This document shows positions 13,001 through 37,884 of a stretch of DNA of 64,000 bases, in pieces. The notes beneath the pieces are model-generated. The model was given only the letters and a program-made list of their open reading frames with translations. It did no database searches and was not told the origin of the DNA. Origin of the DNA: a virus; IMG/VR virus record IMGVR_UViG_3300026097_001055, positions 50,891 to 114,890 of that record; one strand, written 5' to 3'. The position numbers and the translations under genes were made by a program. How positions within the stretch are numbered: the first letter of the stretch is position 1; each line of letters begins with the position of its first letter.

Positions 13001-14025
13001 ATAATGAAACAAAAAAATTAGATTTGTCTAATATATTTATATCGGCATCTTTAAAAAATATAATACCTTCTTTAGAACAAAACAAAAAAAGACAAATTAA
13101 TATAGTTGAAGATCTTCAAGAAGTAAAAGGTTTTACATCTAAAGGTATGTATTCAGGAACAGATGCCGATAGTGATTTTGGATTTCATTCTTTTGGTATG
13201 ACAGCTACTACTAATTTATCTAATTATAATATAGATGAAATAGATAATTTACGTGATGCTTTAAATTTAGGAAAAAAACTTTTTAATCAAAAGTCAAATG
13301 GAATTCCTATTATTCCAGATTTAAATGATGATAAAAAAATAGGAAATACAAGAGCTGTAGTACAAGTCAAAGATGAAGATGTTTATAGAAATGGCACAAA
13401 AGAAGAACAGGAGACTTATTTAGATCTTTATGAAGACTTAACTTCATTAGAGTTTTCTGAAACTATGGATAAATTAGATACAAATGCTCCTAAAATTAAA
13501 CAAACATTAATAACAGAATCAGGTGCATATGGATATGGATTTTTAGAAATTGAGTTAGATGATAAAGGAGACTCTTATAAAAAGTATAAAGTAATTTCTG
13601 AAGACTTGTATAAAAGTTTATCTAAAGATAAAAAGAAAAAAATAAAAGACGATGGAATAAAAATTTTACCAAAAATACGTATACACATACCTCAAAATGA
13701 ATATCAACCTTTTATCAAAGCAAATAAAAGTATTGCTTTTAATACATTTAAAGCTAATGATAAAATAGGAGATTTAGATACTTTTGATGCTGAAATAAAA
13801 ATAGAAAACATAAATTCTGAAAAAATTACTTACTCTACTTTATATAATAAATACTATAGAGATTCTAATACAGATGAAATAAAATTAAAAGTTGTAGAAA
13901 TAGAAGGTAGCGAATATCCTGCTAATGCTGAAGAAGATTATATGAGTATAATAACTAAATTAATTTTAACAGGTCAGGCTTTAAGTAAACAAAGTTTAAA
14001 AGAAGTTAATAGTGATGATCAATAA
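10039..14025 (+). CDS. Large helical virion/ejection protein
   Basis: 1328-aa ORF starting MATYIQGLTQYLPQIQPFQRDFNF; coiled-coil rich; DPYA motif; only two Cys (CVGKDC); lies directly before the giant ejection genes. Confidence 0.55.
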   Translation: MATYIQGLTQYLPQIQPFQRDFNFFANVMQKKQTEYDSGHQAMNKLYGSIFYSDVSRADNQEKKEEILKSIDYNLRKVSGLDLSLDENVRQAKQVFKPFYEDQNLMKDISYTKTYQNAVQKGLSAKDCVGKDCPDVYWDGGLRLLNHQMKNFKNASADRAMQMRNPTYVNKFNMMKEAAKAAKENNFEIVFEGPKNGYMVKEKNGPNAIAPLSDFLYQMFGDDARAIDYYGAKAQLNFYENPEETINQYELQKMRSRAKDAEDYKNMIEEKSKRQTFEKNKRVITTAENNTRSELHEVKDRRKTFQDYATEMGEAFKASPAKQAYDETLQEENVKQRTYENIKGLSDNVRNINYFDEEGNPVAEDVIVGVVAQGMMIDDISNSAKVIANNTYEQTVKGPDPYAMARYKNQLQVGLANYKNELKKDYARFEANNELVNDLIGGKGKSKKEGKKTTDPVELTKQEEAKIRKEASDKLKEEQGNVADEDLKIAEDNAVEQARADKKNKSKLEKAQEFKDKEKEIIEAFESGDLTKEQANKLNEVMQETFEDIGEDEEGNLILLAPTTIDKKDAINTYEKKDIPKNITNISALEAMSSDEDEISYTDEEGTLQNIELTFSDMKNAIDNQSIQNAGIILKFNKNLNENTNYIGSVIGKTVYDSLKSEDPSVVAAANQVLRGVGVDPNAYTNNADDLEDAIVDVINNNPEKFNDYFLGNVVISDRAEEMFNKYRDETPTDIINKYINKTSTEVIKTNTYKGVTLPKNHNPFTLLTVGKKLGISNETVTRLKIQEDLKQKVSTLYENYDNKINDALEYGALSRHNKNTNEAKNTYDALDESPNTYLMDNYPTMTQYIKAGEKLVKQTVPSTFKSQFSRFLRDESKNNYENLKKYHEDNPDVLSGVSSTSVNIQYFEKISDFKETYKESFNEDFNFSFAEIIRLDKAGLLSAGIPSWIGPAGAPREKEPRPIFKKNKETDDYELTPEAIAGGIKFDNETKKLDLSNIFISASLKNIIPSLEQNKKRQINIVEDLQEVKGFTSKGMYSGTDADSDFGFHSFGMTATTNLSNYNIDEIDNLRDALNLGKKLFNQKSNGIPIIPDLNDDKKIGNTRAVVQVKDEDVYRNGTKEEQETYLDLYEDLTSLEFSETMDKLDTNAPKIKQTLITESGAYGYGFLEIELDDKGDSYKKYKVISEDLYKSLSKDKKKKIKDDGIKILPKIRIHIPQNEYQPFIKANKSIAFNTFKANDKIGDLDTFDAEIKIENINSEKITYSTLYNKYYRDSNTDEIKLKVVEIEGSEYPANAEEDYMSIITKLILTGQALSKQSLKEVNSDDQ

Positions 14026-14047: not shown

Positions 14048-17000
14048 ATGGAAGAAAATCAAAATATTAATCCAGAACAGATAACTAATCCTGAACTCAT
14101 TAATGATGAATTAACAGCTGATGAATTAACAGTTGACGAATTAACAACTGATCAATCAACAACTGATGAATCAACAATAAGTTCAGAACCCGTAATATCT
14201 CCGAAATACACTCAGCAAGAAGCTTTTTTAAGAGCTGCAGCAAATCGTGAAAGTATTGAAATTGATAAAAATATATTATCTAATGTAGCTAATGAAGCAA
14301 ATAAAAACGTTAATCAGTATGCAGCAATGGCTAAGCATGGTGTTAACTATGGAAGTGCTAACAGAGGAGGTTTAAATTTACAAAGATATTATAACAGAGA
14401 TGAGTTTCAAAAATTAGGATTTAACCCATTTATAGATAATGAATCTTATTATCAAGCTAATACTACAGCATGGGATGATTTTAGAGCAGCTTATCAACAA
14501 AGTTGGAACTTAGCTAAGCAAGGATTTTTTAGTTATTATAGTGGGCAAACTGAATATGAGAAAGCAGATGCTTATGAAAAATATGCAAACATAGGAACCT
14601 CCCAAAGAGAAGGTGCTAGTAGGATATTCAATAATGTAGTATTAAATGCGGGATACACAGTAGGGTTGTTATCAAGTATTATAGTTGAAGAAGTAGCTAT
14701 AGGTCTTTTAACAGGTGGTATAGGTAATATAGGTAAACTAGGTGTAACTGCAGCTAAAGTAGGAACAGGTGTTAAAAAAGCAAATGCTTTAAAAAGAACT
14801 GTAAATGCTGTAAAAGAATTAAAAAATTTATCTAATGTAGATAAAGCAAGAAGTTTATGGCAGGGTACTAAAAACTTAGGAACAGCCACAGTAAAAGCTT
14901 CTACTAACTTTATTCCAGGTGCAAAAACAGCTGAGTTAATTTATAATTGGAAACATTTAGGAAAACTAGGTAAAAGTGCAGGTCAAGCATCTTTTGCTTC
15001 TTTTGGTGCAAAAGCTGCTCATACATTTGGTACCTTTTACAGAGAAGGAAGAGAAGTTTTGTTAGCATATGATGAGGCACAATTAGAATCAGGAATGATT
15101 TATAATTCAATTATGGATGAGCTAACTATGCAATATAAACAAGACAATAATGGTAATTTACCTTCTAAAGAAGATTTAAATGCTTTTCATGATATTGCAT
15201 ATGATAGATCTATGAAAGGATTTACTAAAAATATGGCTATCATATATGGAACTAACAAGATTTCATTTGGAAATATGTTTAATAAGTTAGCACCTTCTTT
15301 AGCAAGAAAAACTGCTAAAGGTTTTCAAAATTCTGGTGGTAAGATCGTAAAAGGTTTTGATGGTAGATCTGCTAGAGCTGTATATAATAAAGGTATTTTA
15401 AACATTAAAGGTTCTGCGGCTGAAGCGTGGAAAGGGGTTAAGAATTATAAATCTACATTAAAAGCCATTCCTGGTTTTATTGGTAAGAATGCATGGACTT
15501 ACACAAGAGCAAATGTAGGAGAGGGTATTCAAGAATATTTTCAAGAGGTAATACAACATGCTGAGCAAACATCAGCTAAAGATCTTTATGCTAAATATAA
15601 AAGCGGAGTAAGAGGTGTTGCTTTAAATCAAGCTATGGAAGACATGTCTTTTGCTGAAAATTATGGAAAAGCTGCATCACATTTTTGGAGTGGTGAAGGG
15701 TTAGAAATATTTGGAACAGGTGCTATGATGGGGTTCATAGCAGGTCCTTATTCTAAATTTGTTGGTAAAGTAGGTCAAGCTAGATCAGAACTTTGGCAAT
15801 ACAGAAATAAAAAAACAAGAGATGCCCGCAAAGCTCATATGCAAAAAGAATATGATATCTTAGATAAAAAAGTTGAAAATTTTAATAAATTATCACTAGA
15901 TGAAAAAAAGAACTTATATAAGTATGTTGAGTTAATGGGTAATCAAGCTCAGTATGATGAAGAAATGAAGGATGCTGTTGACCAAAATGATGATAAGAAA
16001 TTTTATGATGTTCAAGATGAAGCTTTAAGTGAATACCTTTTAAGTGCTTTACAATTAGGAATGCTTGATAATTTTGAATCAGGTTTAAAAGACATGCTTA
16101 ATTTGTCAGAACAAGAATTTACAGAAGCTTTTGCTGATCAACTAGGATTAGATCCAGAACAAAGCTTGAACCTTAAAAAAAGAGCAACTGATATTTTAGG
16201 TTCAGTAACAAATATAAAAGAAGGATACGAAACACTTAATAACATTTTTCCTGAAATATATGATTTTACAAATGAAAATCCTGAACTTTTTGATGGGGTA
16301 AGTATAGATACTCTTAATGATATGCGTAATAAATACATATCAACACTTATACTTAATCAAAGACAACTTAATAGAAATTTAGATAGATATCAAAAATTAC
16401 AACAATCATTAATAGGTGTTGATAATCCTTTTAGGGATGTAGGTGCTGTATCTTTAAGTTCTTTAAGTAATCTTGTATCTAATACTACTTTAGCTAAAGA
16501 ATTAAAACTACTTGAAACAGAAATAAACACTATTAAACAAGGTAGGGAGTCTGCTCAACAAATGGTTGGTACTCAGAAACAAGTAAATGAAGCTACTAAA
16601 GAATTAAAGAAAAAAGAAAGACTTTATAAGAAATTGAGTGAGATTTATGAAGTAATGCAAAAATTTGAAACTCAATCAAAAAAGTATTCACAAATTACAG
16701 GAGTACAGAATATAGAACAATCAGGAAGAGTTAATTTACTTAAAGGCACATACCTTAATTATTTAGTTAATAAGTCTAAATCAGTTTCTGCAAAAGTTAC
16801 CGGTGTAAAAAAAGTAGAAGGTAAGCCAGCTTTACTAACTATAGAATACACAGAAGGAGAAGGTAAAGATAAAACTAAAGTAACTAAAGAAATAGAATTT
16901 GTAAAAGACAATATTTTAGAATTACAGATTGATGCTGGTACAGAAAGTATGACTATTTCTAAATCAGCACAAGCTAAAATAAAATCTTATCTTAAAGAAA

Positions 17001-18985
17001 TAGCTAAAGAAGCTAACACAACTGTAGATGAGTCTAAATTTGAATCATTCATTAGAAAGTTTTTAGATGCTAGACTTTTAAAAATTGAAGAGATTGATAT
17101 AGCTAATGTAATTGAACAATTACTTTTACCAGAGGTATACAGTGAATATATAGCTAAACAGTTAGCTAGAGCTAAAGATCTGAATAAATACTTTGATGCT
17201 ATATTAAAATATGATTTAGAAACATTTACTGAAGCTGCTATTACTAATCAATTTTTAGCTCAATTGGTTAATGACCATAATATATTCCTTACAGCTGATG
17301 ATGTTGTAGAATTACTTACAGGACAGATTCCAGCAGATTTAAGATTGTTTGATATTAAGACATTAGAACAAGTAAACCCTGGAACAGAAAGATATATAAA
17401 AGCATTAGCTGATATTAAAGAACATGTAGAGTCAACTGATGAATTTAAAAAAGAAAGAAAAGCTAAAGAAGAAGCTGAGAAGGCCGCTAAAGCTAAAACA
17501 GAAGAAGAAGTAGTAGCAGAAGAAGAAGAGGAAGCACCAGCATCTACTGAAGAGATTACTGTAAAAATGATTACAGATGATGTACCTAATAACTTAAATA
17601 ATATACCAAAAGAATTAAAAGATCTTATTCTTAAAAGAATTACAGAGTTTAATGAAGAACTTACAAAAAGTATTGATCAAATTACAGAACCTGAACTGAA
17701 AAAACTTTTAGCAGCTCAAAAACTTACAATAGATACATTGTCTAAAGATAATGAACAAATGTTAAGAGATGCAATAGATGAATACAACAATAAAGCATCA
17801 GAAAAAACAGCTCAATCCACAGAAGAGAAAAAAGAAGAGTCTGCTGCAAAACCAAAAGCTTCTGAATCAACAGCTACTAAACCATCTCAAGTAAGCATTG
17901 CTGATTTTACTGGAGAAGGTTATGAACAGGCTCATGAGTATTTAAAAAGATTACTTGACGGAGGTTATGCATTGTTTAAAATTAAATCTACAAATGATTT
18001 AATGAAAATTATTGGTAATCAATTATTTCATTTAGCTACAGTGCAAGTAGATGGATCTTCAGCAAGTAGAACAAAAATTTTACTTACACAGGAACAACTT
18101 GCTAAGTTTATACCTAATATATTAAAAGCAGAAAGTCAGAATACTTCTTTTGCTATTACATTTGATAATGTTAATACTATTTTAGATTCTACAATTACTA
18201 CAACAACTCAGGGAAGTGTAATAGATGACTTTAAGTTTTATATGTACCCTACTGAAAAGTCAGGTATTTATCAATATCCTATAATAGTAGATGATAAAAC
18301 TTATTATGTAGAATCAGAAGAGATTGCTGATTTCTGGTCAAAAGATAGTAAAACAGCTCTTTATTCATTAGATGTTACTAACTTAACTGAGTTTAATAAA
18401 ACAGAAGCTACTGATACTAAAGCTTTAGATGAATTAGAAAACGAATTAATTACTTTACTAAATAATCTTACTATAGATAATTATTATGATACTGTAAAGG
18501 CAACTCAAAAACTTATAATTGATTATAACTTGAACTCAAAAAATAAAGAAAAAGTTAAAGAAACAGATGCTTTAGAAGCGTTAGATCTAAAGTTAGAACA
18601 ATTAAAGAAAACAATAACTATAGATAACTTTAAAGTCTCTAAAGATAAAGTTTATCAAAAAACTGGTATTTCTAAAACTTATACCGTAAAATCTATTAAT
18701 AAAAAAGATAAAAAAGTTACCTTTGAATCTATAGGAGATGGTAAATTTATGACTTTAGCCGAAGAAAATTTATATCAAATGAGAGAAGTTAAAATTGATG
18801 AAGAGGGTACAACAGCTGATGATGTTGTAGAAACACCTATGTCAGAAGAAGCAAATGAAAAATTTGAAGGTACTAAGAATACAACAGATACTTTAACAGC
18901 TGACCAAATAAAGGAGGCGGTTGATTCAGTAACTGGAGAAGAAAACCTTGAAGATTTAATGGATGGTCTAGAAGAAATATGTTAA
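14048..18985 (+). CDS. Giant ejection protein with Gly/Ala-rich membrane-like segments; its only Cys is the C-terminal residue
   Basis: 1645 aa. Hydrophobic segments VVLNAGYTVGLLSSIIVEEVAIGLLTGGIG and LEIFGTGAMMGFIAGP, a GEGIQEYFQE motif, coiled coils; ends ...GLEEIC. Confidence 0.65.
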   Translation: MEENQNINPEQITNPELINDELTADELTVDELTTDQSTTDESTISSEPVISPKYTQQEAFLRAAANRESIEIDKNILSNVANEANKNVNQYAAMAKHGVNYGSANRGGLNLQRYYNRDEFQKLGFNPFIDNESYYQANTTAWDDFRAAYQQSWNLAKQGFFSYYSGQTEYEKADAYEKYANIGTSQREGASRIFNNVVLNAGYTVGLLSSIIVEEVAIGLLTGGIGNIGKLGVTAAKVGTGVKKANALKRTVNAVKELKNLSNVDKARSLWQGTKNLGTATVKASTNFIPGAKTAELIYNWKHLGKLGKSAGQASFASFGAKAAHTFGTFYREGREVLLAYDEAQLESGMIYNSIMDELTMQYKQDNNGNLPSKEDLNAFHDIAYDRSMKGFTKNMAIIYGTNKISFGNMFNKLAPSLARKTAKGFQNSGGKIVKGFDGRSARAVYNKGILNIKGSAAEAWKGVKNYKSTLKAIPGFIGKNAWTYTRANVGEGIQEYFQEVIQHAEQTSAKDLYAKYKSGVRGVALNQAMEDMSFAENYGKAASHFWSGEGLEIFGTGAMMGFIAGPYSKFVGKVGQARSELWQYRNKKTRDARKAHMQKEYDILDKKVENFNKLSLDEKKNLYKYVELMGNQAQYDEEMKDAVDQNDDKKFYDVQDEALSEYLLSALQLGMLDNFESGLKDMLNLSEQEFTEAFADQLGLDPEQSLNLKKRATDILGSVTNIKEGYETLNNIFPEIYDFTNENPELFDGVSIDTLNDMRNKYISTLILNQRQLNRNLDRYQKLQQSLIGVDNPFRDVGAVSLSSLSNLVSNTTLAKELKLLETEINTIKQGRESAQQMVGTQKQVNEATKELKKKERLYKKLSEIYEVMQKFETQSKKYSQITGVQNIEQSGRVNLLKGTYLNYLVNKSKSVSAKVTGVKKVEGKPALLTIEYTEGEGKDKTKVTKEIEFVKDNILELQIDAGTESMTISKSAQAKIKSYLKEIAKEANTTVDESKFESFIRKFLDARLLKIEEIDIANVIEQLLLPEVYSEYIAKQLARAKDLNKYFDAILKYDLETFTEAAITNQFLAQLVNDHNIFLTADDVVELLTGQIPADLRLFDIKTLEQVNPGTERYIKALADIKEHVESTDEFKKERKAKEEAEKAAKAKTEEEVVAEEEEEAPASTEEITVKMITDDVPNNLNNIPKELKDLILKRITEFNEELTKSIDQITEPELKKLLAAQKLTIDTLSKDNEQMLRDAIDEYNNKASEKTAQSTEEKKEESAAKPKASESTATKPSQVSIADFTGEGYEQAHEYLKRLLDGGYALFKIKSTNDLMKIIGNQLFHLATVQVDGSSASRTKILLTQEQLAKFIPNILKAESQNTSFAITFDNVNTILDSTITTTTQGSVIDDFKFYMYPTEKSGIYQYPIIVDDKTYYVESEEIADFWSKDSKTALYSLDVTNLTEFNKTEATDTKALDELENELITLLNNLTIDNYYDTVKATQKLIIDYNLNSKNKEKVKETDALEALDLKLEQLKKTITIDNFKVSKDKVYQKTGISKTYTVKSINKKDKKVTFESIGDGKFMTLAEENLYQMREVKIDEEGTTADDVVETPMSEEANEKFEGTKNTTDTLTADQIKEAVDSVTGEENLEDLMDGLEEIC
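14105..14179 (+). repeat. Degenerate 15-bp in-frame tandem repeat x5 (DELTA DELTV DELTT DQSTT DESTI)
   Basis: GATGAATTAACAGCT-like units that diverge stepwise along the array. Confidence 0.85.
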
Positions 18986-18988
18986 GAT

Positions 18989-21900
18989 ATGAAATGTAGT
19001 TTAAATGTAGAAGCACAGTTAGGATTTACTAAGATTTTTTCTAGTGGTTTATTAAATATAGCAAAAGATCCTGCTAAATTAGAAGACTTTAGTTTAGAAA
19101 CTTATGTTAATTATTTAGTCAATGCCTTAGAATCTAAAGGCAAAGATCGTGAAGTAATACTTAATTATGTAAGCATTATACCATCTATAGTTGGTCAGCT
19201 TATTCCATTGACACAATTTAAACCTTTAAGACCAGGTTTAAGAGCTACAGAGTCCGCAGAATTATTAGATCTTATTTCAGATGCTCAAGGTATAGAAGAG
19301 TTAAATGAAATTTTTTTTGAGAAGCCTTCTAAAGACCAACTTAAAAAAGATTTAAAAACTAACAGAGATAACAAAAGAGTAGATCAAGCTAATGCTGATG
19401 AGGAAGTTAACGAAAATCCTCCATCAGATCCTGAGTCAGAAAAAGAAATGGCTGCAGAAATAACTCTTAATGCTGTACCTGATTCTGTTTTAGCATCTAC
19501 TCAACAAGTAATTGATGAAGATGGAAACATAAAACCTGAATATGTTTTTTATAATACTTTTCTAGCTGATTTATCTGATATGCTTGCCGGTGATACTAGT
19601 GCAGAAACATTGGCTAAAATGAGTTTTACTGATACTGAAGGTAAAACAGTTAAAGGTATTACTGTTAGAATGGCTTTCTTATCACAAGTAGTTACTAACA
19701 TTAATAAAAGAAAACAAAACGGGATTGATACAAATCCTGAAACAAGTAGGGTAATGCCTGTGGTTATATTCACAAACAAAAAAGGTGAACCTATTTATTT
19801 TAAGAAAGAAGACAACGGTATGTATACAGTTTATACTGAAGAGGAAGCTCGTGAAGAAAATGATGCATTACCTGTATATTTTGCTGTTAGAGCTATAGAA
19901 AAGAAAAAGGGTAGATGGGTTTCTAAAACTAAAATACAAACACCTTTAGATATATTACAAACAAGTAAAGGTGGTAAAAGAGCTTTAGAAAAATATAAAG
20001 AGGAAGACCCTGATGGTTACAATGCAGATCTAGAAAGAATAGATATGCAACAACAACAGGAATTTCTTATGTTACATTTAGCAAAAGAAAAACTAAAATC
20101 TACAAAACTCAGTAAAGTTAGAAACTTATTAAATAACCATTTTAAAGGAGGTACATACTTTTTACAAGGTACTCTTACTAAAAGAGGTACAGGTAAATCT
20201 AGAAATTTTAATGTTACTGATGCTAAAGCTGCACCGGAATTAAAAGCAGATGACGTTAAAAACATGAAAGTTTTCATAAATGATAATTTACAAGAAATCA
20301 TAGATGAACAGAAGCTAGCAGGATTTAAAGTAATGGAACGTAAAGGTGTTTACATTACTCAGATGAAAAAAAAACCTAAACTCAAAACTAAAGATGGTTC
20401 TGAGTTTAATGATGTTTATGAAATACAATTAAAGTTTAAAAAAACAGTTAATGGTAAAATAAAGTATACTACAAAAACAATAGGTGTTTTACAAGCTACA
20501 GAATTTAATACAGCTAATACTTCTTCTATAGAATTTGCTGGAATAAGTAAAGGTTACATAGCTGTAGAAAGAACAGCAGAAACTAGAACTTCATCAATTA
20601 AATGGGAGTCATCAGATGTTCCATTTAATCCAGCATTAGGAGGAGCAAAGGTTAGATCTACAGGTATTAATCCTGGTGAAATATATATCCCAGCCGGAAA
20701 TACAAATATTCCATTACAAATGGATTCTATATCTAATGAAGATATAAATACTATTAACTCTTTACTTTTTGATAAGGATTTAAAAACACAAGCTAGTGTT
20801 AAGAGTAGAGTTAAAGAACTAAGTAATGAAGATAGATTTAAAGCTTTAGCTACAATTTTAACATTAGGTGATAGAAATGAAGAAGGTGCACAAAGTCATA
20901 TTTCCGGAATACAATATTATCCAAAAACAGGAAAGGTTATTGTAGATGGAGTTACTATAAAACTTGATGATCCTGCATCTGTAAAAAGAGGTAAAGAATT
21001 AGTAAAAAGTTTACTTACTGAAACAGTAACTACTAAAGCAGGTAAAGACTCAGGATACACTAGAATTAAATATAAAATATCAAATACAGTTTTAAAAACG
21101 GGTGGTAATATAGAAACCTATAGTATTGAAAACGGGATTCTTAAAAGAGTTAATGTTAATGTTTTAGATTTCATAAAAGACAATTCTATAATCAGAGTAG
21201 TGCCTTTAAATAATGAAATTAAATATGTTAATGGTTATGTTAGATTTAGTCTTAGTGAAACAGCAGTTGCTGAGAAAGAAGGTATGCCTACTGAGGCTGA
21301 AGAAGAAGTAATAGAAAAAGTTACTCCTAAAAAACCTGTAGCTAGAAGAAAAACTACACCTGTTAAGAAAGATATTAAAGTAACACCTCCTAAGTTTTCA
21401 GAAACTAAGCCTGTTGATTTAACTGATAGAGGAAATGTAGGTGAACAAAGAACATTAGATGATGATTTACCAACCATAGATGACCTGTTAAATAAAGCTA
21501 AGAATAGCCCAGAGTTATTAGATTCAGATCCTGTGTCTGATGCACAAGCTAAGGCATGGTTAGAAGGCCCTGGAAAAGCTTTATTCAATAATACTGGAAT
21601 ATCTTTTAACAGAGCTTTTGATGTGGTTAATTCAAACGCTTTTGGTACATTCAGAGATGGTGTAATTTCATTATGGAAAGGTTCTGATTATACAGTAGCT
21701 TATCACGAAGCATGGCATGCTTTTTCACAACACTTTGTAACAGTTGGTGATAAAATAAAACTATATAATTATGTAGCTAAAACAGATTCAGGTAAAAAAG
21801 CATTAGCTGAATATGCTAAAGAAAAACAAATTGATGTAGACTCTTTAACTGATATTCAAAAATACTTTGCTGTAGAAGAACTTATTGCTGAAGACTTCAG

Positions 21901-24900
21901 AATTTATATGATGTCTGGAGGTAGTAAAATAATCAAAGGTGCTCCTGAAAGAAATACAATATTTAGAAGAATCTTAAATTTCCTAAAGAATTTATTTGTA
22001 GGTAAAGATGGAAATCAGATGCTTACTGAGATGTATAATAACTTAAGAAAAGGAGAGCTTAATACTTATTTACCAAGTCAGTCTAATAGAATATTCGGAA
22101 AGACATTAAATAAGTTTAAGCCTGTTCCTGGTAATACTCATGAATTTACACCACAAGATTTAATACATGCTAATGAGACAATTGGTGGATATCTTTCAGA
22201 AGTTATTTCAGACAAAACTATAGAAAAGGGAGCTTCTATATTTAGCTTATTGGTTCTTGACCCTAGTACAAACTTACCTAAAATTTATAAAAATGTACAA
22301 CAAAAATTAGAAGCTAAACTTTTAGAATTACAAGCAGAAGAAGAACTTACTTCCAATGAAGAAAATGCTATAAAGCTTATTTCAGCTATACTTGATAACT
22401 GGGGTAATTCTAAAATAGGTATGGTAGCTAATCATTTAGAATCTATCAAATATTTAGATATTACTAAAGTTGATTTTGATGAAGATGCTTTTAGAATTAC
22501 TGAAGAAGATCAAGAAACTATGCGCTTTGATGCTGCAGGTAATGACTTATCTTCTGTAGATGTAGCATCTAAAGGAGTCAAGTTAATGTTGTCTTTAATC
22601 CCTAACAGAGATAATGAAGGAGATGTATTTAGAAATGAGTTAGGAGCTGTTGAATTAGTTCCTTTTGCTAGAGTCTGGTCTGTTGTTAAAGACAAAGTTA
22701 TTGGTAAAAACTCTCCTGAAGAAATGATAGATGCTTTAAAAGAATTAAGATTTAGTTTTCCTTGGGTTATAGATATTATAAACACATTACAACCGGTTGA
22801 AAATATTAATAATTCTTCTAACTTACAGCAATTACTTTACTTAAGAAATAGTTTTTTCCATAGCTTTAATTTAGCTGAAAGAGACCTACACCAGGTAAAC
22901 ATAAATGAAGAAAAGACTATAGTAATTGATGAAGAAGGTGGTAAAACTGTAAATAAAAGTCACACAATAAGAACTGGTGTAGTAAGTGGTGTAAGTAAAT
23001 ATGCTATTACTGAATTTAGAAGTATGTTTGCTTCAGCAGGACCTAGTGAATTTATATTATCTACAACAGAAGGTAACGCTTTAAATGTAACAGCAGTATT
23101 AGATAGATGGACTAAAGCTCCTAACACACCTGAAGAAAAGTTAGCCTTTTTAAGACATTTAGGTTTAGTAATGGTTGATGTACCTGCGGTCAGAGAAGCT
23201 ATTAAGAATATTGAAGTAGGCTTTTTATGGAGTAGTTTAGATGAGTATAATAAAAATTATGTAATAGGTGGAGAAGCTAATGCTAATTTTATTATGGATC
23301 CTCTTACCTTATTAACTTTAGGTAAAAAAGAAATATATAAGATACAAGGTTCTACTAAAACAATGCCTAAAGTTACCGTAACTAGTCAAAGTAGTACCAT
23401 CAATGCTTTAGCTGAAATGCATGTAAAGTATTCAGGTAATTATGCTAACGTTGCTCTTACAACAGCTGATGGAAAGCAAAAGTATAACACAACACTTATG
23501 TCTTCATTAGATGTAATGGTTAAGGAATTAAATAATGTTGAGTCATATGCTGAGTTAGTTAACCTTCCTCATATGAGCCATTTAAAAATGGACAAGTTCT
23601 TTATGGCAAGTGCTAATCCTATTCTAAAATCTTTATTTGAATATGATGAGATTGCTGGTACTTTTGGTAAAAGAAGAAAAGGAATAGTATTTACAGTTGA
23701 TGACCTTACAGGAGTACAAACAGTAGTAAATGAATTATATGCAGACTTTTCTAGAAGTGTGGTAACTGCTAAAATGGATAGATTTACTAGAATACAATCT
23801 GACATATATAGTGGGTTAATGCAAGGTAAGTTTAGTACTACTACTCACTCCGATAAGAGTACAGCCTTAACCTATTATCTAAATAGCATAGAAGGTTCTT
23901 CACCTAAAGCTAAACACTTGTATGTTAATCCAACAGGATTTAGAATAAATGATAATACAGCAGGTATTGAAGAAGCTTTTGCTTTGTTAGAACCTTATAT
24001 TAATGGAGAGCTTGAAAGAATAAATAAAGTAAAAGCTTTCACTAATGGTGAAATAGAATTAGATAGAATTCCTGGAGTTACTATTCCTAATAGTAAAGGT
24101 AAAATGACTGGAGATAAGTTTAAATTTATCTCTGGTATATTTACTAATTCTACACTAGAAGATCTTTCTCAATACAATGATATGAGTGAGGTACCTGATG
24201 AATTAGCTCAGACAATGATAGAAGAATATTCTATGTATGTAGACACTAAAGTTGATGAAATAAAGGATATGTTAGATGGAACTTTATTTGTTGATGCTAA
24301 TATGATAGATCTTCTTAATTCTATGGGTGAAGGTCTTGAAGGAGTTAACCCTAAACAAAAAAGAGAAGCTGCAGAACATGCTGTGTTATACGGATATGTT
24401 ACAAATTATTTCTTTCATCAAGCTGCTACAGTATCCTTACTTTATGGTGATCTTACTGAATACAATATGGCTAAACATGATTTTAATAAACGTAATGCAG
24501 CAGTAGCAGCTACTGGAATACGTATGTTTAGAACAGACAGTGAAGCACTTACTTGGGTAAATGCTGAATACAAATCAACCTCTGATAAATTATCATACGC
24601 TCAAAAACAAGGAGTAGCTGATTATAGAATAGGGGAAGTGTTAAGAACAGCTGTTATTAAAGATCTTTTAAAAGATTCTGTTTCTATGGGTAGTCCTGAA
24701 ATGAAAAAACAGTTAATAGCTAAATATAAAGAAAGAGGCCTTAACCAAACGCAAGCTATAGAAGCAGCAGATAAGCTTATAAACTATTATAAAGGTATGG
24801 AGGTTGCTGATGCTCAAGGTTATATAAGCTTTGATCATTATAGAAAATTAAGAATGCTTAGTGATAGATGGTCTCCTTCATTAGATGCTATCTATTATAA

Positions 24901-27900
24901 AACAATAAATGCTCCAGAAACTGTTACTGAGGAAGAAATGTTACAAGCGTTTCCTCCATTAAAATACCAGTATGATGGGCCATTAGCTACTAAATCTTAC
25001 AATGCTCATGCTTTCCATAAGTATTCATTAGTCCCTTTAATTCCTACAGTGATAGAAGGAACTGATCTAGAAGTTTTACATAATACAATGATTGAACAAG
25101 GACTTACTTATACTACACATAAGACAGGTTCTAAGATTAGTGATGTTGTAGGTGAAACAAATGAGTTAGATGATTGGCATGGTTATTTAAGTACACCTGT
25201 GGATGATAGACCAGCTAGTTTTAATTTTACACCTAATGGTGTTTATCTAAAATATCTAAAAAATCAGTTAGATATCAACACTGTTAAAAAAGGCAAGGTT
25301 ATATTTTCTACTCAGATGCGTAAGCTTATCATAGACGGTATGTATAATATAGGTGAACCTATAAATGAACTAAGCCGTGAAAAAGTAGACAACTATGAAA
25401 AATCTTTAGAGTTGTTTATGGGCATGCGTTTACTAGATCTTCAACTAGAATTAGGAATGGATCCGGAAAATCCTAATTCTAAACCTGATAATGAAAAGCT
25501 TTTAAAATTAATTATTGATGAACTTGATGCTCAAGATATTGCTGAGCACAATCTAGATTACATTAAGCTGGACAGTCAAGGTAACTTTACTTATGACTTT
25601 TCTATAGGTTTGAATTCTTTACAGATAGAGCATTCTTTACTAGCTATTGTAAACAATAGATTAGTTAGACAAAAAGTATTAGGGGAGCCTCTAGTACAGA
25701 TGTCAAATGCAATGATGAGTAAAAGAAAAGCTACAGCAGATGAGTTGGAAACTTATGGTGATAGTGATTTAAAATTTTATCAACCTAATTATTTTGAAGA
25801 TGGTAGAACTTTAGGAGCTGAATCTAAGATATCTATAGGTCAAGGAAACTTCAAGCAGTTGTTTAACTTAATTGACTATAGAGATGGTCAAAAAGTAGGA
25901 GTTGTAGAAAAAGTAGAAAAGGATCTTGAAACAGGTAAGGAAAGAGTAATATACAATGAGAAAAAATCTTTAGAAAGACTTAATGATTTAATACAAGATG
26001 AGACTTGGAGAAAACAAGAAGGTAATATAGAATTAATATCTTTAGCTGGTGTACGTATTCCTGTACAAGGTCATAACTCAATGGTTAATTTTATTGTAAA
26101 AGAATTTTTACCAACCTCTGCCGGTTCTATTATTATACCACCTTTTGAAATTGTTGCTCAATCAGGATCGGATTTTGATATTGATAAGTTGTCTATACTT
26201 ATGCCTCATATTACTAGGCAAGGTAACTCTGTAAAAGCTCTTAGAGCTGACCTATCTATAACAAAAGCATCTGATATTATAGCTAAAAGAGCTGCAATTA
26301 AGACGAAATTAGTAACAGCTAAGAAATCTTTACAGGAAAAAAGAAGTGCCTTTGATATAGCTGCAAAAAAAGCATTCAAAGCTAAGTTAACGGCTGAACA
26401 ATTTCAAGAATTAAACTTAATTAAAAACGAGTATAGAGATTTAATAAAAGAGCAAACAGATTTATTAAAAGATGCTACAGAAGAAACTATAGAATTAATA
26501 GAAGAAAAGATTCTAGAATTAAATACGGCCCAATCTGAAGCAATAAAAGCTTTTGGTAGAAGTATCAATGAAGCCAGAGTAGTAGAGTTTGAAACTAACT
26601 CTAATGAAGCTAAAGAAGTAAATAAAGTATTAGAAACAATCAACTCATATAAATATGATTTAGCTACTCTTAATACTAAAGCTTTTGAAAATGAAATGTT
26701 ATTTAGTATAACAGACATACTAGCATTACCTCAAACATTTTTGTCTTTAATTACACCTAACAGTACTGATATGTTTACAGGTCCTGGTAGTCTAGTGGAA
26801 GAACTAAAAAAGTTTAGAGATTATAAATCAGAAAAAACCGTTCATGAAAAAGACCCGTATAATGATTTACAAAAAACTACCCCTGCTACTAATATTTTAG
26901 AGCCTGCCTACAACATGTCTATTCATGAGCAAAATTCTGTAGGTAAGGATGTATTAGGTACTGCAGCTGTAGCAAACACTTTTAACACTTTATTTGCTAG
27001 AATGGGCTTTACTATACCTAAGTCATATGAAGTGTTTACACCAAAAGGGTCTTACACTAGAGAAGTAGAAATATTTTTAAAAGCAAATGAAGTAACTATA
27101 GAAGGTGAAGAACGTATATCTTTAGCAAGTTTATATAATCAAAAAGGAGTTAAAATAGCAGACATTATAAATCAAATTATAAATGGATATGTTGACGTTG
27201 CTAAAGATGCTTGGATTTTTGATGTTCAAGGAAATAAACAATTAGCACCTGTTTTATTATTTCTTGTTCAATCAGGGGTACCTGTTGAGCAAGCTGTTTA
27301 TTTCTTATCTAACCCTGCTGTAAAAGAATACGCCCGATTAGTAAAAAAATACAGTTCTCCATTTACTCAAATTAAATCAGAAGATGATACTACTGCTAAC
27401 GAAAGAGCTAAAACAGAAATACTCAAGGAATTTGGAGTAAAGAAAACAGCAAATGCTGCAATTTTCGGCTTAGCTAAAAAGAAAAGAAATGAACTTAAAG
27501 AAAGAGGTATCACAGAGTTTAAAGAAACCTATTTAAAAAAATTAACATCTACTGAAGTATATGATAGACAAAATTTTAACATCTTTCTACACTTTTTAGA
27601 ATTACAAGATCATAGTAAGCATGTAACAAGTATAGTAACTAACTTTAATAATGATACTACTAGACAAACTGAATTGTATGGTCTGCAGCAAAAAGAAACA
27701 GAACAAAGAGCTGTACTATCTGAAAATCCATTCTTTTCTGAAACAGAATATGCCAAGCTACTTCAATCCCCTATAGGTAGTTTTTTTCAGGTTAATAATT
27801 TCCAGAATCAGTTATGGTCAGATTTATTTAATTTTTCAGCAGATACTGATATTAATGATATAATAAGTGATTTTTTAGCAGACTATGAACAAAGACAAAC

Positions 27901-29626
27901 TGCTATAAGCATGTTTGGTGATATTGAAAGATTTGCACCTGCTTTTAAGAAAGACTTTCTTACAGCTATGTTTATAGGTGAATTAAAGCAACTTGACTTT
28001 TTACAGAAGAAAGAGTATAAAGGGATACCTATATCAAATACAGATACTGTTGATTTAGTAGCTGTAAGTAAAGATGAAAACGGAAATGTTAGTATAAACA
28101 TTAATGAAGAAAATCTAAAAACTATATTTAATAAAAAACTTTACACCTATCAAAAAAGTAATACTAGTGAGTTAGCAGGTTTAACTTTTCAAAAACAAAA
28201 ATTGGCTACATTACATGCTAATACTTTTTCAGCAAAATTTGGATCAAGCTTTGAAGAGTTTGTAAAGTTTAACATAGAACGTGAGTTAATTAAATTAAAT
28301 ACACCTGTTAAAGAGTATGCAAAAACTGAAAATTACAAAATTAGAAATGCTAAAATAAGAAGCAAAAGAGCTAAAAGAACAGGAGAATCAAATGCAGCTT
28401 ATAACACACGTTTACAAGTAATTACATATAGAGAATATTTAAGAGACACGGCTCTTAACAATATACATAACTTATATGCTATGTTTGGAAGTAAAAGTAC
28501 AGCTGTGTCTACAAGACTTTATAATCTTCAGCAAAAATACCCTAGTTTAGCAAAATCATTTAATTTGTTTGGTGATCTAATACCTGATGTAAGTAAGCCA
28601 TCAAGAGCTACTAGAAATCCTCAGAATTATTATAACATTAAACTTAAAGATAACCGTGTAGAAAAAACTATGTTCTCAGTATATGCTGCTAACATCTTAG
28701 ACTTAATGAACCCTGAAACAATTCCTACTATAAAAGGTGAGTTAACAACAGCTGAACAAAAACAAGAAATAGCTGACTTCTTTAAAGACATTGCTACAAT
28801 AGCTGTATTACAATCAGGATATGATACTAGTAATCCACTATCTTTAATAAAAGCTGTTCCTGAAGAAGCCATTATAAAATTAGTTCAACAAGGTTTAAAT
28901 AAGCATTTTAATACTTTAAATCTGAATAACTTTTTAAATGATTTTATTCAGCAAAACTCTAAAGATGCTAGAAATTCTAGAAGAAGAATGAAAGCATACA
29001 TACCTTTAGATGTAGCAACAGAAAAATCTACAAAGACAAAAAGCTTAACAGAAACTTTAAAAGCTGCAATAAATAAAATTTACCCTGGTTGGATAAATAA
29101 TAAAAATAATGAACTTTCTTTAGTTTCTGAATTTAAAGCGCTTCAGCTATTATCTCAAGAGGAATCCTCAATGAAAGATAGAATTAGTTCTGGAAAAGAA
29201 GCTAAAAAATTAATTAGTGAAATTAAAAAAGGTAAAAATCCTTTTACAAAAGATACTAATGCTAAAGAAGTCCTGCCTAATTTATTTTACAATTACATTT
29301 CAGGAGAGTTAGCTAAAGATGGCATATCTGAAAAAGATATGTTTTTGAATTTATTTAATACTACACGAACACCTACTCAATCATCTACTAGTGTTAAAAA
29401 AGGAATTCCATTAAATTATGAGGGTGTTATTGAGGAAGAAGAATTAGATACTCCAGGTGAAACTATTAAAGATCCTATAACAGAGCTTAAAGAAATATTT
29501 AGTAATTTAGATGCCGCTACTAAAAAGAAATTAGGAGGGGTTACTAAAATAGTTAAGAACTATAAAGCTTTACCATTTGAGATGACTCCACAAGATTATA
29601 TAGAACAAGAAATTAATAAGTGTTAA
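18989..29626 (+). CDS. Virion-packaged single-chain DNA-dependent RNA polymerase (crAss-like / phi14:2 gp66 type) with fused zincin domain
   Basis: 3545 aa. RIPVQGHNSM...AQSGSDFDIDKL catalytic motif (DFDID at 26171-26185), ADAQGY, STQMRK, NGYVDVAKD; HEAWH...EELIAEDF zincin (HEAWH at 21704-21718). Cys only at residue 3 and the last residue. Confidence 0.9.
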   Translation: MKCSLNVEAQLGFTKIFSSGLLNIAKDPAKLEDFSLETYVNYLVNALESKGKDREVILNYVSIIPSIVGQLIPLTQFKPLRPGLRATESAELLDLISDAQGIEELNEIFFEKPSKDQLKKDLKTNRDNKRVDQANADEEVNENPPSDPESEKEMAAEITLNAVPDSVLASTQQVIDEDGNIKPEYVFYNTFLADLSDMLAGDTSAETLAKMSFTDTEGKTVKGITVRMAFLSQVVTNINKRKQNGIDTNPETSRVMPVVIFTNKKGEPIYFKKEDNGMYTVYTEEEAREENDALPVYFAVRAIEKKKGRWVSKTKIQTPLDILQTSKGGKRALEKYKEEDPDGYNADLERIDMQQQQEFLMLHLAKEKLKSTKLSKVRNLLNNHFKGGTYFLQGTLTKRGTGKSRNFNVTDAKAAPELKADDVKNMKVFINDNLQEIIDEQKLAGFKVMERKGVYITQMKKKPKLKTKDGSEFNDVYEIQLKFKKTVNGKIKYTTKTIGVLQATEFNTANTSSIEFAGISKGYIAVERTAETRTSSIKWESSDVPFNPALGGAKVRSTGINPGEIYIPAGNTNIPLQMDSISNEDINTINSLLFDKDLKTQASVKSRVKELSNEDRFKALATILTLGDRNEEGAQSHISGIQYYPKTGKVIVDGVTIKLDDPASVKRGKELVKSLLTETVTTKAGKDSGYTRIKYKISNTVLKTGGNIETYSIENGILKRVNVNVLDFIKDNSIIRVVPLNNEIKYVNGYVRFSLSETAVAEKEGMPTEAEEEVIEKVTPKKPVARRKTTPVKKDIKVTPPKFSETKPVDLTDRGNVGEQRTLDDDLPTIDDLLNKAKNSPELLDSDPVSDAQAKAWLEGPGKALFNNTGISFNRAFDVVNSNAFGTFRDGVISLWKGSDYTVAYHEAWHAFSQHFVTVGDKIKLYNYVAKTDSGKKALAEYAKEKQIDVDSLTDIQKYFAVEELIAEDFRIYMMSGGSKIIKGAPERNTIFRRILNFLKNLFVGKDGNQMLTEMYNNLRKGELNTYLPSQSNRIFGKTLNKFKPVPGNTHEFTPQDLIHANETIGGYLSEVISDKTIEKGASIFSLLVLDPSTNLPKIYKNVQQKLEAKLLELQAEEELTSNEENAIKLISAILDNWGNSKIGMVANHLESIKYLDITKVDFDEDAFRITEEDQETMRFDAAGNDLSSVDVASKGVKLMLSLIPNRDNEGDVFRNELGAVELVPFARVWSVVKDKVIGKNSPEEMIDALKELRFSFPWVIDIINTLQPVENINNSSNLQQLLYLRNSFFHSFNLAERDLHQVNINEEKTIVIDEEGGKTVNKSHTIRTGVVSGVSKYAITEFRSMFASAGPSEFILSTTEGNALNVTAVLDRWTKAPNTPEEKLAFLRHLGLVMVDVPAVREAIKNIEVGFLWSSLDEYNKNYVIGGEANANFIMDPLTLLTLGKKEIYKIQGSTKTMPKVTVTSQSSTINALAEMHVKYSGNYANVALTTADGKQKYNTTLMSSLDVMVKELNNVESYAELVNLPHMSHLKMDKFFMASANPILKSLFEYDEIAGTFGKRRKGIVFTVDDLTGVQTVVNELYADFSRSVVTAKMDRFTRIQSDIYSGLMQGKFSTTTHSDKSTALTYYLNSIEGSSPKAKHLYVNPTGFRINDNTAGIEEAFALLEPYINGELERINKVKAFTNGEIELDRIPGVTIPNSKGKMTGDKFKFISGIFTNSTLEDLSQYNDMSEVPDELAQTMIEEYSMYVDTKVDEIKDMLDGTLFVDANMIDLLNSMGEGLEGVNPKQKREAAEHAVLYGYVTNYFFHQAATVSLLYGDLTEYNMAKHDFNKRNAAVAATGIRMFRTDSEALTWVNAEYKSTSDKLSYAQKQGVADYRIGEVLRTAVIKDLLKDSVSMGSPEMKKQLIAKYKERGLNQTQAIEAADKLINYYKGMEVADAQGYISFDHYRKLRMLSDRWSPSLDAIYYKTINAPETVTEEEMLQAFPPLKYQYDGPLATKSYNAHAFHKYSLVPLIPTVIEGTDLEVLHNTMIEQGLTYTTHKTGSKISDVVGETNELDDWHGYLSTPVDDRPASFNFTPNGVYLKYLKNQLDINTVKKGKVIFSTQMRKLIIDGMYNIGEPINELSREKVDNYEKSLELFMGMRLLDLQLELGMDPENPNSKPDNEKLLKLIIDELDAQDIAEHNLDYIKLDSQGNFTYDFSIGLNSLQIEHSLLAIVNNRLVRQKVLGEPLVQMSNAMMSKRKATADELETYGDSDLKFYQPNYFEDGRTLGAESKISIGQGNFKQLFNLIDYRDGQKVGVVEKVEKDLETGKERVIYNEKKSLERLNDLIQDETWRKQEGNIELISLAGVRIPVQGHNSMVNFIVKEFLPTSAGSIIIPPFEIVAQSGSDFDIDKLSILMPHITRQGNSVKALRADLSITKASDIIAKRAAIKTKLVTAKKSLQEKRSAFDIAAKKAFKAKLTAEQFQELNLIKNEYRDLIKEQTDLLKDATEETIELIEEKILELNTAQSEAIKAFGRSINEARVVEFETNSNEAKEVNKVLETINSYKYDLATLNTKAFENEMLFSITDILALPQTFLSLITPNSTDMFTGPGSLVEELKKFRDYKSEKTVHEKDPYNDLQKTTPATNILEPAYNMSIHEQNSVGKDVLGTAAVANTFNTLFARMGFTIPKSYEVFTPKGSYTREVEIFLKANEVTIEGEERISLASLYNQKGVKIADIINQIINGYVDVAKDAWIFDVQGNKQLAPVLLFLVQSGVPVEQAVYFLSNPAVKEYARLVKKYSSPFTQIKSEDDTTANERAKTEILKEFGVKKTANAAIFGLAKKKRNELKERGITEFKETYLKKLTSTEVYDRQNFNIFLHFLELQDHSKHVTSIVTNFNNDTTRQTELYGLQQKETEQRAVLSENPFFSETEYAKLLQSPIGSFFQVNNFQNQLWSDLFNFSADTDINDIISDFLADYEQRQTAISMFGDIERFAPAFKKDFLTAMFIGELKQLDFLQKKEYKGIPISNTDTVDLVAVSKDENGNVSININEENLKTIFNKKLYTYQKSNTSELAGLTFQKQKLATLHANTFSAKFGSSFEEFVKFNIERELIKLNTPVKEYAKTENYKIRNAKIRSKRAKRTGESNAAYNTRLQVITYREYLRDTALNNIHNLYAMFGSKSTAVSTRLYNLQQKYPSLAKSFNLFGDLIPDVSKPSRATRNPQNYYNIKLKDNRVEKTMFSVYAANILDLMNPETIPTIKGELTTAEQKQEIADFFKDIATIAVLQSGYDTSNPLSLIKAVPEEAIIKLVQQGLNKHFNTLNLNNFLNDFIQQNSKDARNSRRRMKAYIPLDVATEKSTKTKSLTETLKAAINKIYPGWINNKNNELSLVSEFKALQLLSQEESSMKDRISSGKEAKKLISEIKKGKNPFTKDTNAKEVLPNLFYNYISGELAKDGISEKDMFLNLFNTTRTPTQSSTSVKKGIPLNYEGVIEEEELDTPGETIKDPITELKEIFSNLDAATKKKLGGVTKIVKNYKALPFEMTPQDYIEQEINKC

Positions 29627-29628
29627 TT

Positions 29629-32600
29629 ATGAGTGAACGTTGTATTTTAAAAAGTAATCCTCAGTACCAAAATATAGTAAAGATTTTTGGTGATAATGTA
29701 GCTTCAACTTTAGTAATTGAGTTTAATAAAAATATTGCAAGTACAGAAATGTTTTATCCAAAAGTAAAAACATTAACTAATTGGATATCAAAAAACAAAA
29801 CTGAACAAATAGCTAGAGTTAAAGATTTGCTTATAGCTGAACCAGGCATGACTGAAAAGGCTATATTTAATTTACTTTCAGGAGTTATAACTAAATTTGA
29901 AAATAGTTATATGGTTACTAGAGGTAACCTTTTTGGAGGAGGTCTTGTCAACAAAGCTTATAATGAAAAATATACTTATGGTGCTAACATAAGATTAATG
30001 AGAAAACTTGCTGAAGAATTCCCTCAGCATTTTGAAATTATAGATGGTGCTAAAAATAGCTTTACACATATTGTAAAGATTAATCCTATAAAACCAGATG
30101 TAAGTGGTGTCTCACAGCAATCAATTGGACCAGATGGGCAAACTAAATTGTTTGATTATAACGTAGATCCTACAACAAAAGGAGCTCAAACAAAAACTAG
30201 TCAAAGACTACAAAATTTATTTGAAAACAAACCAAAAGTTGCCGCAGTTGATATTGTAGACAAAATAAAAAAAAATAATCCAGAACTAAGACATCTTATA
30301 AATAAACTAGAAGGTTTAATTCCTGCTGGAACAGAAATAATACTAGAGGATTCAACAGGTTACACTACTCCTTTTGGTACAGCTAATGCTAAATATAATA
30401 AAGTAACTCAAGAGATATCTATTGCTAAAAATGCTTTGTTTGCTCAAAGCCCTGAAGCTGTAATACTTCATGAACTTATTCATAGAATAACTTCTGAGCA
30501 ATTAATATTGGATACTAAAGCAACTCTAAAGTTTGATGAGCTATTAACTCAAGTAAGAGAAAAGATAGGAACAAATAGATTTGATTATGCTCTACAGAAC
30601 AAAGATGAGTTTCTAGTAGCCGTATTAATGGATAAAGAATTTGGTGCAGCATTGTCTAAGTTAGAAGGTGTAGATAAAAAAATAAGCTTATTTGAAGAAA
30701 TTATAAACTTTATACTCAGGGTCATAAACATTGAAAAAACAGATAATGCTTATGACCAAGCTGTAAGTTTAGTAAATAGTATCCTAGAAACCATTAATCC
30801 TGTTGTGTCTAATCAACCTGTAAGTGGTATAAAACAAGGAGTGTCAGAACTATTTGAATCTAATCCTGAATTAGCTAATGAAGTATATTCAGCTTTAGGG
30901 TTTGATAGTGTTACTATTCCAAAATATAATATTAATAAAAAATTAAGCAATAAAGATGGAACTAAAAGACTAGCGCAAACTAACGGACTAAACATTACAC
31001 TTAATCCTGTTACATCTATACAAGAATTTTTTGATTATTTTACAGGAAAAGAAGGTGGAATATCTTCTCAACAAAAAAATAAAGTATTAGATGTTTTAAA
31101 AACAAAAGGATATTCTTTAGATAAAATAAAAAAGATACTTGACACAAAACTAAAAATAAATACTTTTTTAGTTTTGCACGAACAAGACCACATTGTTAAT
31201 AATGATAAAGATGTATATTGGAAATCAGGTAAAGATTTATTAACTTCTGATAAAATTAATATAGAAGCTAGAGCTACAATAAATGCTTTAAAGCAACTAG
31301 AAACTCAAATAACCCCACAACAAAAACAAAAAGCTCAACAACTATACTCTCAATATCTTGATACTATATTTCCTGATAGTAAAGTAAAGGATATTGTTTA
31401 TCATGGTACAGGTTCTTCAGAAACTATTGAAAACTTTAACAGAAGAACTTATTTTAGTATTTTAGAAACAGCTTCGGAATATGCTTCTTGGGATGCTAAA
31501 AATAGATTAGAGTATGCTGCTTCTCAAGATCCTAGTTTAACAAAAGATTGGAAATTTAAAGCTAACGTTATCCCAGCTATAATCAATCTTAAGGATCCTA
31601 AAATGTTAAACAAGAGACCTTATAAAGAAACAGAAAAAAATTATCCTGGACATGATGGAATATACTCAGAAAATACTGTAAATCCTTTACAGGGTTCAGA
31701 ATTACAAATAGTTGTTTTTGACCCTAAGAATACTTATATTTTAGGTTCTAAACAAGATATACAAGGATTTAAAGAGTTTGTTGGTACTGAAACTACACCG
31801 TCTTTAACAGAAGAAATAATAGATAATCCTGAAACTATATTTGTAGTAGAAGCTGATCAAGCAGGTAATGTATATACTGAAGAAACAGGGGTTACTAAAC
31901 TAGAAGCTTATCCTAATGTGGTAACTATTATAACAGCTAAGAATTTTAATAGTACAGAAAGTTTAACGGCTGCAGAACAAGACAGTTTAAAAGAAGATTT
32001 AGAAAACTCCTTAGACCTTTTAGAGCAAATAGTTACTGATGATACTGATGTAAAATTTGTAAGCAAGAATATGGGCCAAGGATTAGATGCTATAAACAGC
32101 AACTTCAAAGATTACCTTAAAGCCCGTCTAGAAAATGAACATGGTGTTAAGTCTAAAGAATCTTCTGTAGATCAAGTTAATCAAATAGAAGAAGAAGATA
32201 CTATAATTGCAGATCCTAAAGAAACCGAAAATAAACAAGAGACATTAGAAGAAAAACTTAATCCTAAAAAACAAGAAACTAGAAGATCTACAGCTTTTCT
32301 AATGGATGCTGTAAAAATGTTAATGGATAACTTAGGAATGCCTGAAAGCAGCGTACAGTTCATATCAGCAAATGAGGCAATGTCTATTACCAGAAATGCT
32401 AAAAACTCTTATAATGGACAACCTGCGTTCTTCTACAATGGTGTTGTATACTTTGTAGATGGTCAGATTGATTTTAAAACAGCATTGCACGAGGTTTCTC
32501 ACCCTTTTGTAAAAAGTATACGTTATCAAAATGAAACATTGTTTAACGAGCTTTATGACACTGTAGCAACATCTGAGTTAGGTAAACAAGTTATTGCTCA

Positions 32601-37884: not shown

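Follow-up and report, generated by a model that had tools for sequence, protein, structure and literature searches.

Terminal cysteines and a probable head-to-tail disulfide chain of three giant cargo proteins, virion RNA polymerase included, in a crAss-like phage

Cryo-electron microscopy (cryo-EM) of the pre-ejectosome of cyanophage A4 (Anabaena phage A-4L) revealed a disulfide between Cys1715 of gp27 and Cys5 of gp26, which holds the C-terminal helix of gp27 in a cleft of gp26 (PMC12002296). Ejected proteins of the Schitoviridae, namely N4 gp50, the DEV virion RNA polymerase (RNAP) gp71, gp72 and gp73, are suppressed in cysteine (Cys), a property explained by passage through the oxidizing periplasm (PMC11445570), and the RNAP block of crAss-like phages is known in single giant polyprotein forms (bioRxiv 10.1101/2020.03.07.982082). 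How crassviruses pack and deliver a near-megadalton protein cargo that includes an RNA polymerase is a question on which three consecutive giant genes, A, RNAP and C, bear; they lie in a 64,000-nucleotide stretch of viral DNA (IMG/VR record IMGVR_UViG_3300026097_001055, positions 50,891 to 114,890; hereafter the window), the right-hand 64 kb of one 114,890-bp contig. Their products are predicted to be giant proteins that a crAss-like phage packages as cargo, packaging into the virion and delivery to the host being known from the relatives phi14:2 and PhiCrAss001. We consider it likely that A, RNAP and C are joined head-to-tail by disulfides between terminal Cys. The genes and their Cys codons are as follows (aa, amino acids).

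14048..18985, + strand: gene A, 1645 aa, 184.9 kDa; first member of the proposed chain, with its only Cys at the C-terminus
18980..18982, + strand: TGT, Cys1645, last residue and sole Cys of A
18989..29626, + strand: RNAP, virion-type two-barrel RNA polymerase, 3545 aa, 399.4 kDa; middle member
18995..18997, + strand: TGT, RNAP Cys3, one of two Cys in RNAP
29621..29623, + strand: TGT, RNAP Cys3545, last residue and the other Cys
29629 (ATG)..37884, + strand: gene C, 2751 aa, 314.2 kDa; last member, with an HExxH zincin-like motif
29641..29643, + strand: TGT, Cys5, sole Cys of C

Together, A, RNAP and C hold four Cys in 7,941 residues, where approximately 189 would be expected from base composition (G+C of the region is 29%). 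An initial annotation had placed all four at facing ends of the three proteins; counting by open reading frame (ORF) and codon position bears this out exactly, and a programmatic count found no internal Cys. The outer ends, i.e., the N-terminus of A and the C-terminus of C, are Cys-free, as first described, and minus-strand ORFs have a measured Cys content of approximately 1%. The coding frames of A, RNAP and C contain 1, 2 and 1 TGY triplets, respectively, versus 18 to 188 in the other two frames. Were four Cys placed at random, the probability that each of the four facing termini would have one within 5 residues is approximately 4e-12. Across the whole 114,890-bp genome, no other protein was found with Cys at its termini only. 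As read from sequence, selection has purged Cys from A, RNAP and C save near the termini that face the next protein.

Terminal Cys are conserved among homologues of all three proteins. A search with RNAP returned 110 homologues (P0001–P0110) of 2,300–6,000 aa and 19–95% identity, most of which have 1–3 Cys in total. Approximately 100 of the 110 carry a Cys within the last 10 residues and approximately 70 within the first 6. In an alignment of 30 sequences (19–56% identity), the column of RNAP Cys3545 is invariant, like the catalytic aspartates. The search with A yielded 11 proteins (10 relatives and the window's own), every one with exactly one Cys, located within the last 3 residues. Cys1645 is invariant in both A-family alignments, and when 42 C-terminal tails of the A family (10–19% identity) are aligned, no column but that of the terminal Cys is invariant. 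Homologues of C mostly have a single Cys at residue 2–8 and none at the C-terminus, and the Cys5 column is nearly invariant in the C-family alignment. Internal Cys in homologues are sporadic, with recurrent ones residing in conserved catalytic-type motifs and not at junctions.

Pairing of terminal Cys was scored in 80 sequences, comprising 78 IMG/VR loci around the RNAP core, one more IMG/VR locus (L001) and the window, in which + strand ORFs were called. After de-duplication, 203 junctions between adjacent ORFs were distributed as follows.

Cys near the upstream C-terminus and near the downstream N-terminus: 128 junctions
Cys near the upstream C-terminus only: 4 junctions
Cys near the downstream N-terminus only: 4 junctions
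Cys near neither terminus: 67 junctions

Thus, terminal Cys pairs co-occur in orthologues as had been anticipated, with both sides or neither side occupied at all but 8 junctions (Fisher p = 1.7e-43, a value uncorrected for shared ancestry and hence not to be taken as a literal probability). Most of the 8 one-sided junctions are inserted homing-endonuclease-like ORFs or a start-codon miscall. The 201 unique proteins flanking paired junctions total 473,347 residues and 296 Cys, 265 of them no more than 10 residues from an end; as background, a terminal Cys occurs at the N-terminus of 10 of 78 opposite-strand ORFs and at the C-terminus of 5 of 78. Placement within the termini is also narrow. The C-terminal Cys is followed by 0–3 residues at 114 of the 128 paired junctions, and the N-terminal Cys is preceded by 2–5 residues, Met included, at 127 of the 128. 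Such very short stubs beyond the Cys would suit a link that passes a narrow channel. The RNAP N-terminus has the context C-[AST]-L-[STN], and C-type N-termini often read C-P-N, a difference that hints at junction-specific docking. When flanking residues were compared, no conserved His, Asp or second Cys was found next to the terminal Cys.

Gene splits and fusions change the number of terminal Cys in step with the number of junctions. Extra members lying within the chain, of 169–1,326 aa, carry their Cys exclusively at the two ends. In locus L033, C is split into proteins of 583 aa (Cys 4 and 581) and 1852 aa (Cys 4) that map onto the unsplit C of L009, which is without Cys at that site. Split C proteins of L063 (396 + 2232 aa) and L071 (689 + 2002 aa) map onto L079 and L013, respectively, and in both cases a new Cys pair at the break is absent from the unsplit protein. 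In L017, a 252-aa C-terminal module of RNAP has a gene of its own, and its product carries Cys 3 and Cys 252; L047 has this module fused, with no junction Cys. The initial annotation had argued that a fusion should lose the pair, and this is what fusions display. In L056 and P0059, where the A-family N-terminal domain is joined to RNAP, both junction Cys are absent, and the protein upstream of the L056 fusion is itself without a C-terminal Cys. The full fusions P0093 (5,990 aa), P0105 (5,545 aa) and P0085 (4,368 aa) contain no Cys at all; their C-terminal 500–1,500 residues are homologous to C-type proteins, and P0093 and P0105 are, in addition, similar in their N-terminal regions to further RNAPs with N-terminal extensions or fusions. 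Because pairs are made by splits and dropped by fusions, the number of terminal Cys is approximately twice the number of junctions. Retention of Cys at fusion junctions was considered separately and rejected, the internal Cys of homologues being in catalytic-type motifs.

Small Cys-containing ORFs lie between chain genes in three loci (L063:19087-19680, L053:12361-13050 and L058:10024-10641). Two of the three have a YKGSCIYI-like N-terminus, suggesting GIY-YIG homing endonucleases. The L063 insert sits exactly at the C-gene split and may be its cause.

Two cultured crassviruses show the Cys arrangement of the window (negative numbers count from the C-terminus).

PhiCrAss001: gp47, Cys at -3 only; gp50, Cys 5, 1334 and -9; gp49, Cys 5 only
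phi14:2: gp67, Cys at the last residue only; gp66, Cys 3 and -2; gp65, Cys 3 only

As in A, RNAP and C, the order in gp67-gp66-gp65 and gp47-gp50-gp49 is C-terminal Cys only, Cys at both ends, and N-terminal Cys only. The window phage is very divergent from these viruses, with an RNAP of 3545 aa versus 2180–2412 aa. A hidden Markov model (HMM) of the RNAP family matches phi14:2 gp66 (2e-104) and PhiCrAss001 gp50 (3.9e-68), and the C-family HMM matches PhiCrAss001 gp49 (3.8e-21), with no match to gp65. The A-family HMM gave no match to gp47 or gp67, whose correspondence to A consists of gene position, size and Cys pattern only; homologues found with this HMM lie immediately upstream of RNAP in approximately 50 loci. 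In PhiCrAss001, gp47 is encoded on one strand, gp50 and gp49 on the other, and the terminal Cys are kept, placing the signal at the level of protein and not of the gene junction. IAS virus (L085, NC_049978), a human-gut crassvirus, likewise has partner genes on opposite strands yet keeps the terminal Cys of gp055-gp058, two of which have 10 and 7 internal Cys. Terminal conservation is therefore separable from internal Cys depletion. The IAS virus record has ambiguous bases at the gp055/gp056 boundary.

A structural analogue comes from outside the Crassvirales. By our check of the A4 genome, Cys1715 is the sole Cys of gp27 (1,717 aa) and Cys5 the sole Cys of gp26 (1,114 aa). Like the window proteins, these are otherwise Cys-free products of adjacent genes, the upstream one with its Cys near the C-terminus and the downstream one near the N-terminus; they are packaged ejection proteins, as A, RNAP and C are predicted to be. 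No homology of A4 gp27 and gp26 to A and C was detected, either by blastp (E>0.05) or by hhalign (probability 0.2% and 0.1%).

Collectively, the comparative data and the A4 analogue strongly support a head-to-tail tether. The link is probably a disulfide, by analogy with A4 and with PhiCrAss001, whose tail and gp57 contain many disulfides, those of the tail including intersubunit bonds (PMC10172136; the study also ran non-reduced virion samples by mass spectrometry). A Cys1645 would bond to RNAP Cys3, and RNAP Cys3545 to C Cys5. The product of these intermolecular disulfides would be a covalent, reducible chain of approximately 0.9 MDa (the summed mass of A, RNAP and C is 898.5 kDa, as initially estimated), a post-translational counterpart of the single polyprotein of relatives. 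Disulfides would form after the particle leaves the reducing cytoplasm, the chain would keep its proteins in fixed stoichiometry and N-to-C polarity through packaging and ejection, and reduction in the cytoplasm of the new host would open it. Redox release of the chain is plausible. Of the disulfide thread as first proposed, the pairing has stood up to the comparative test and has a counterpart in A4; bond timing, threading in gene order and cytoplasmic release are steps that we infer. Function as an ordered thread, taken alone, is possible, although we lean against it. We are somewhat more doubtful of the widest version, in which Crassvirales, and independently at least one cyanophage, would use a redox-gated 'post-translational polyprotein' for ordered delivery through the tail, cytoplasmic reduction would time the release and activation of RNAP, and new Cys pairs would let splits, module swaps and homing-endonuclease insertions be tolerated.

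Two further observations concern A. An AlphaFold2 model of its last 300 residues has terminal helices that reach the Cys, with modest confidence (predicted local distance difference test 63–77). Hydrophobicity analysis found one weak hydrophobic 19-mer, and membrane insertion by A, part of the initial proposal, is speculation.

Several observations weigh against a disulfide chain. The A4 precedent is an analogy, gp27 and gp26 showing no detectable homology to A or C. Cryo-EM of PhiCrAss001 did not resolve gp47, gp49 or gp50 (PMC10172136). The RNAP gp66 of phi14:2 was purified and crystallized alone in dithiothreitol/tris(2-carboxyethyl)phosphine and is active as an isolated protein. The cytoplasm in which particles assemble is reducing, and many of the hosts are anaerobic, such that oxidation must come later or inside the capsid. 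Among the comparative data, the junctions behind the pairing statistics are phylogenetically non-independent, and some distant RNAPs are without an N-terminal Cys even though their N-terminal extensions are short. The clearest exception to the terminal-Cys rule is P0084, an RNAP homologue of 3404 aa with 17 Cys (0.5%), of which one is residue 7; its C-terminus has none. In L058, the first protein seen has an N-terminal Cys without a visible partner, an exception we cannot explain.

Other accounts of the terminal Cys were weighed against these same data. At both junctions of the window, TGT TAA comes shortly ahead of an ATG, as might arise by chance or from a signal in the nucleotides, for instance one for translational coupling at stop and start codons. 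This account is effectively refuted by the chance calculation above and by the looseness of the arrangement at the DNA level: Cys lie 0–9 codons from the stop and 2–5 from the start, intergenic spacing runs from -11 to +51 nucleotides, TGT and TGC are both used, and Cys are kept in PhiCrAss001 and IAS virus with partner genes on opposite strands. It is improbable that the terminal Cys bind something other than the neighbouring protein, be it a different part of the virion, a second copy of the protein itself or whichever terminal Cys is available, in no fixed order. Sequence alone does not name the partner, and the intersubunit disulfides of PhiCrAss001 tail proteins illustrate other uses of Cys in a virion. 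Binding without order does not, however, predict a first member lacking an N-terminal Cys and a last member lacking a C-terminal one (L058 being the one exception), the balance of C-terminal and N-terminal Cys counts within each genome, or the differing flanking motifs of RNAP and C N-termini, which suggest junction-specific recognition. Head-to-tail linkage is favoured because each split adds one Cys per new end, outer ends have none, full fusions lose all terminal Cys, and the A4 bond has this geometry.

Within a head-to-tail arrangement, the same partners could be joined through a metal bridge, the alternative named in the initial annotation, or through some other chemistry of the thiols. 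The pairing rule shows that two Cys act together and not how they do so, and the residues leading up to the C-terminal Cys are often acidic. Still, this is quite improbable: with one Cys per side and no conserved adjacent His, Cys or Asp, a tetrahedral site would be short of ligands, and the analogous A4 pair is a disulfide in density. The single Cys per side and the lack of a conserved ligand beside it thus favour a disulfide over a metal bridge. We also find it hard to credit that the proteins have no covalent link and that terminal Cys instead serve in redox sensing, as a transient thioester or as a processing or packaging signal. Such roles would fit with the bond not having been observed in a crassvirus and with gp66 working alone in vitro under reducing conditions, but they leave unexplained the facing Cys pairs, the Cys-free outer ends and the loss of both Cys in fusions. 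Among narrower candidates, self-circularization of each protein through its own two Cys is out because A and C have one Cys each, and a lipoprotein-type N-terminal Cys is out because the residue is 2–5 residues after Met with no signal peptide ahead.

The A, RNAP and C modules do not form one ORF in the window, where TAA stops at 18983-85 and 29624-26 part the three genes. A and RNAP share a reading frame, with only the TAA and a single codon, GAT, ahead of the RNAP ATG (18983-18991); RNAP and C are in different frames. Read-through of the stop codon from A into RNAP was rejected since RNAP and C are not in frame. TAA is not known to be reassigned in these phages, which was also counted against read-through.

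Database searches place the region far from described phages. A megablast search of phage records with the region gave no match, and its likeness to annotated phages is limited to short tblastn matches to crAss-like RNA polymerases. A PHROGs search returned nothing for A, RNAP, C or the four giants upstream of A, and Pfam gave just one sub-threshold match among A, RNAP and C, to PB1 in C. Conserved motifs and the upstream giant ORFs are as follows.

21704..21718, + strand: HEAWH (HExxH) motif in the N-terminal part of RNAP, residues 906-910; H906, E907 and H910 invariant or nearly so in 30 homologues
26165..26188, + strand: GSDFDIDK, catalytic DFDxD motif of RNAP; D2395, D2397 and D2399 invariant in 30 homologues
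32488..32502, + strand: HEVSH motif of C, residues 954-958; H954, E955 and H958 invariant in 18 homologues
387-3404, 3463-6675, 6675-9971 and 10039-14025, + strand: four more giant Cys-poor ORFs directly upstream of A, of 1005, 1070, 1098 and 1328 aa, respectively

An invariant HExxH zincin-type motif is present in both the RNAP and C families; the published assignment of a zincin-like HExxH domain is to the gp65-type protein only. RNAP homologues P0001–P0110 include proteins with additional Pfam domains (PF13532, PF08719, PF18760, PF13604/PF13245, PF13671, PF00075 and PF12694), and the giant homologues have the look of vehicles for exchangeable effector modules. Seven Cys-poor giants follow one another in the genome (12,442 aa, 8 Cys), and A, RNAP and C close this series. 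Of the four upstream of A, two are without Cys; the other two each contain a single close-set internal pair (C280/C283, numbered from the ATG at 3463, and C128/C133). A pair of the C128/C133 type is also found in relatives (L006, 128/134; L041, 127/133), and similar close pairs occur in PhiCrAss001 gp45 (390/398), phi14:2 gp69 (369/378) and A4 gp28 (1036/1039). Just before the Cys-poor block, the same genome has a run of + strand ORFs with 3–8% Cys (G000:C1:37587-43644), one of which, of 421 aa, has 33 Cys. These Cys-rich ORFs probably encode external tail or fibre proteins.

If A, RNAP and C are chained as proposed, a conserved end-to-end tether would provide a concrete mechanism for the stoichiometry and polarity of the cargo, and possibly for ejection order and the timing of activation. 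The free interchange of split and fused gene architectures would be accounted for as well. Independently of mechanism, the terminal-Cys rule can aid annotation by marking the true starts, ends and number of chain members. The A4 disulfide is a known precedent; for the Crassvirales, we found no description in the literature of terminal Cys or disulfides in cargo proteins, neither the PhiCrAss001 structural study nor the preprint on the phi14:2 RNAP refers to the terminal Cys, and the preprint makes no mention of cysteines at all.

The proposed chain differs in instructive ways from each of the systems it resembles. A4 has two members, no RNA polymerase, and a folded pentameric ring around the portal axis, whereas the window has three members (up to five in relatives) joined by proposed bonds, with RNAP in the middle. 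Schitoviridae share with the window a giant virion RNAP, co-ejected proteins and strong selection against Cys. Their proteins, however, are essentially Cys-free, termini included, and so have no such chaining, whereas the window keeps conserved terminal Cys; moreover, crAss-like RNAP is a DFDxD two-barrel enzyme of a different family from Schitoviridae RNAP. Closest in content are the polyprotein forms of the crAss-like RNAP block, exemplified by P0093, P0105 and P0085, which carry the same modules in the same N-to-C order. In the window these modules are three genes parted by TAA stops, and the proposed disulfides would restore their linkage post-translationally.

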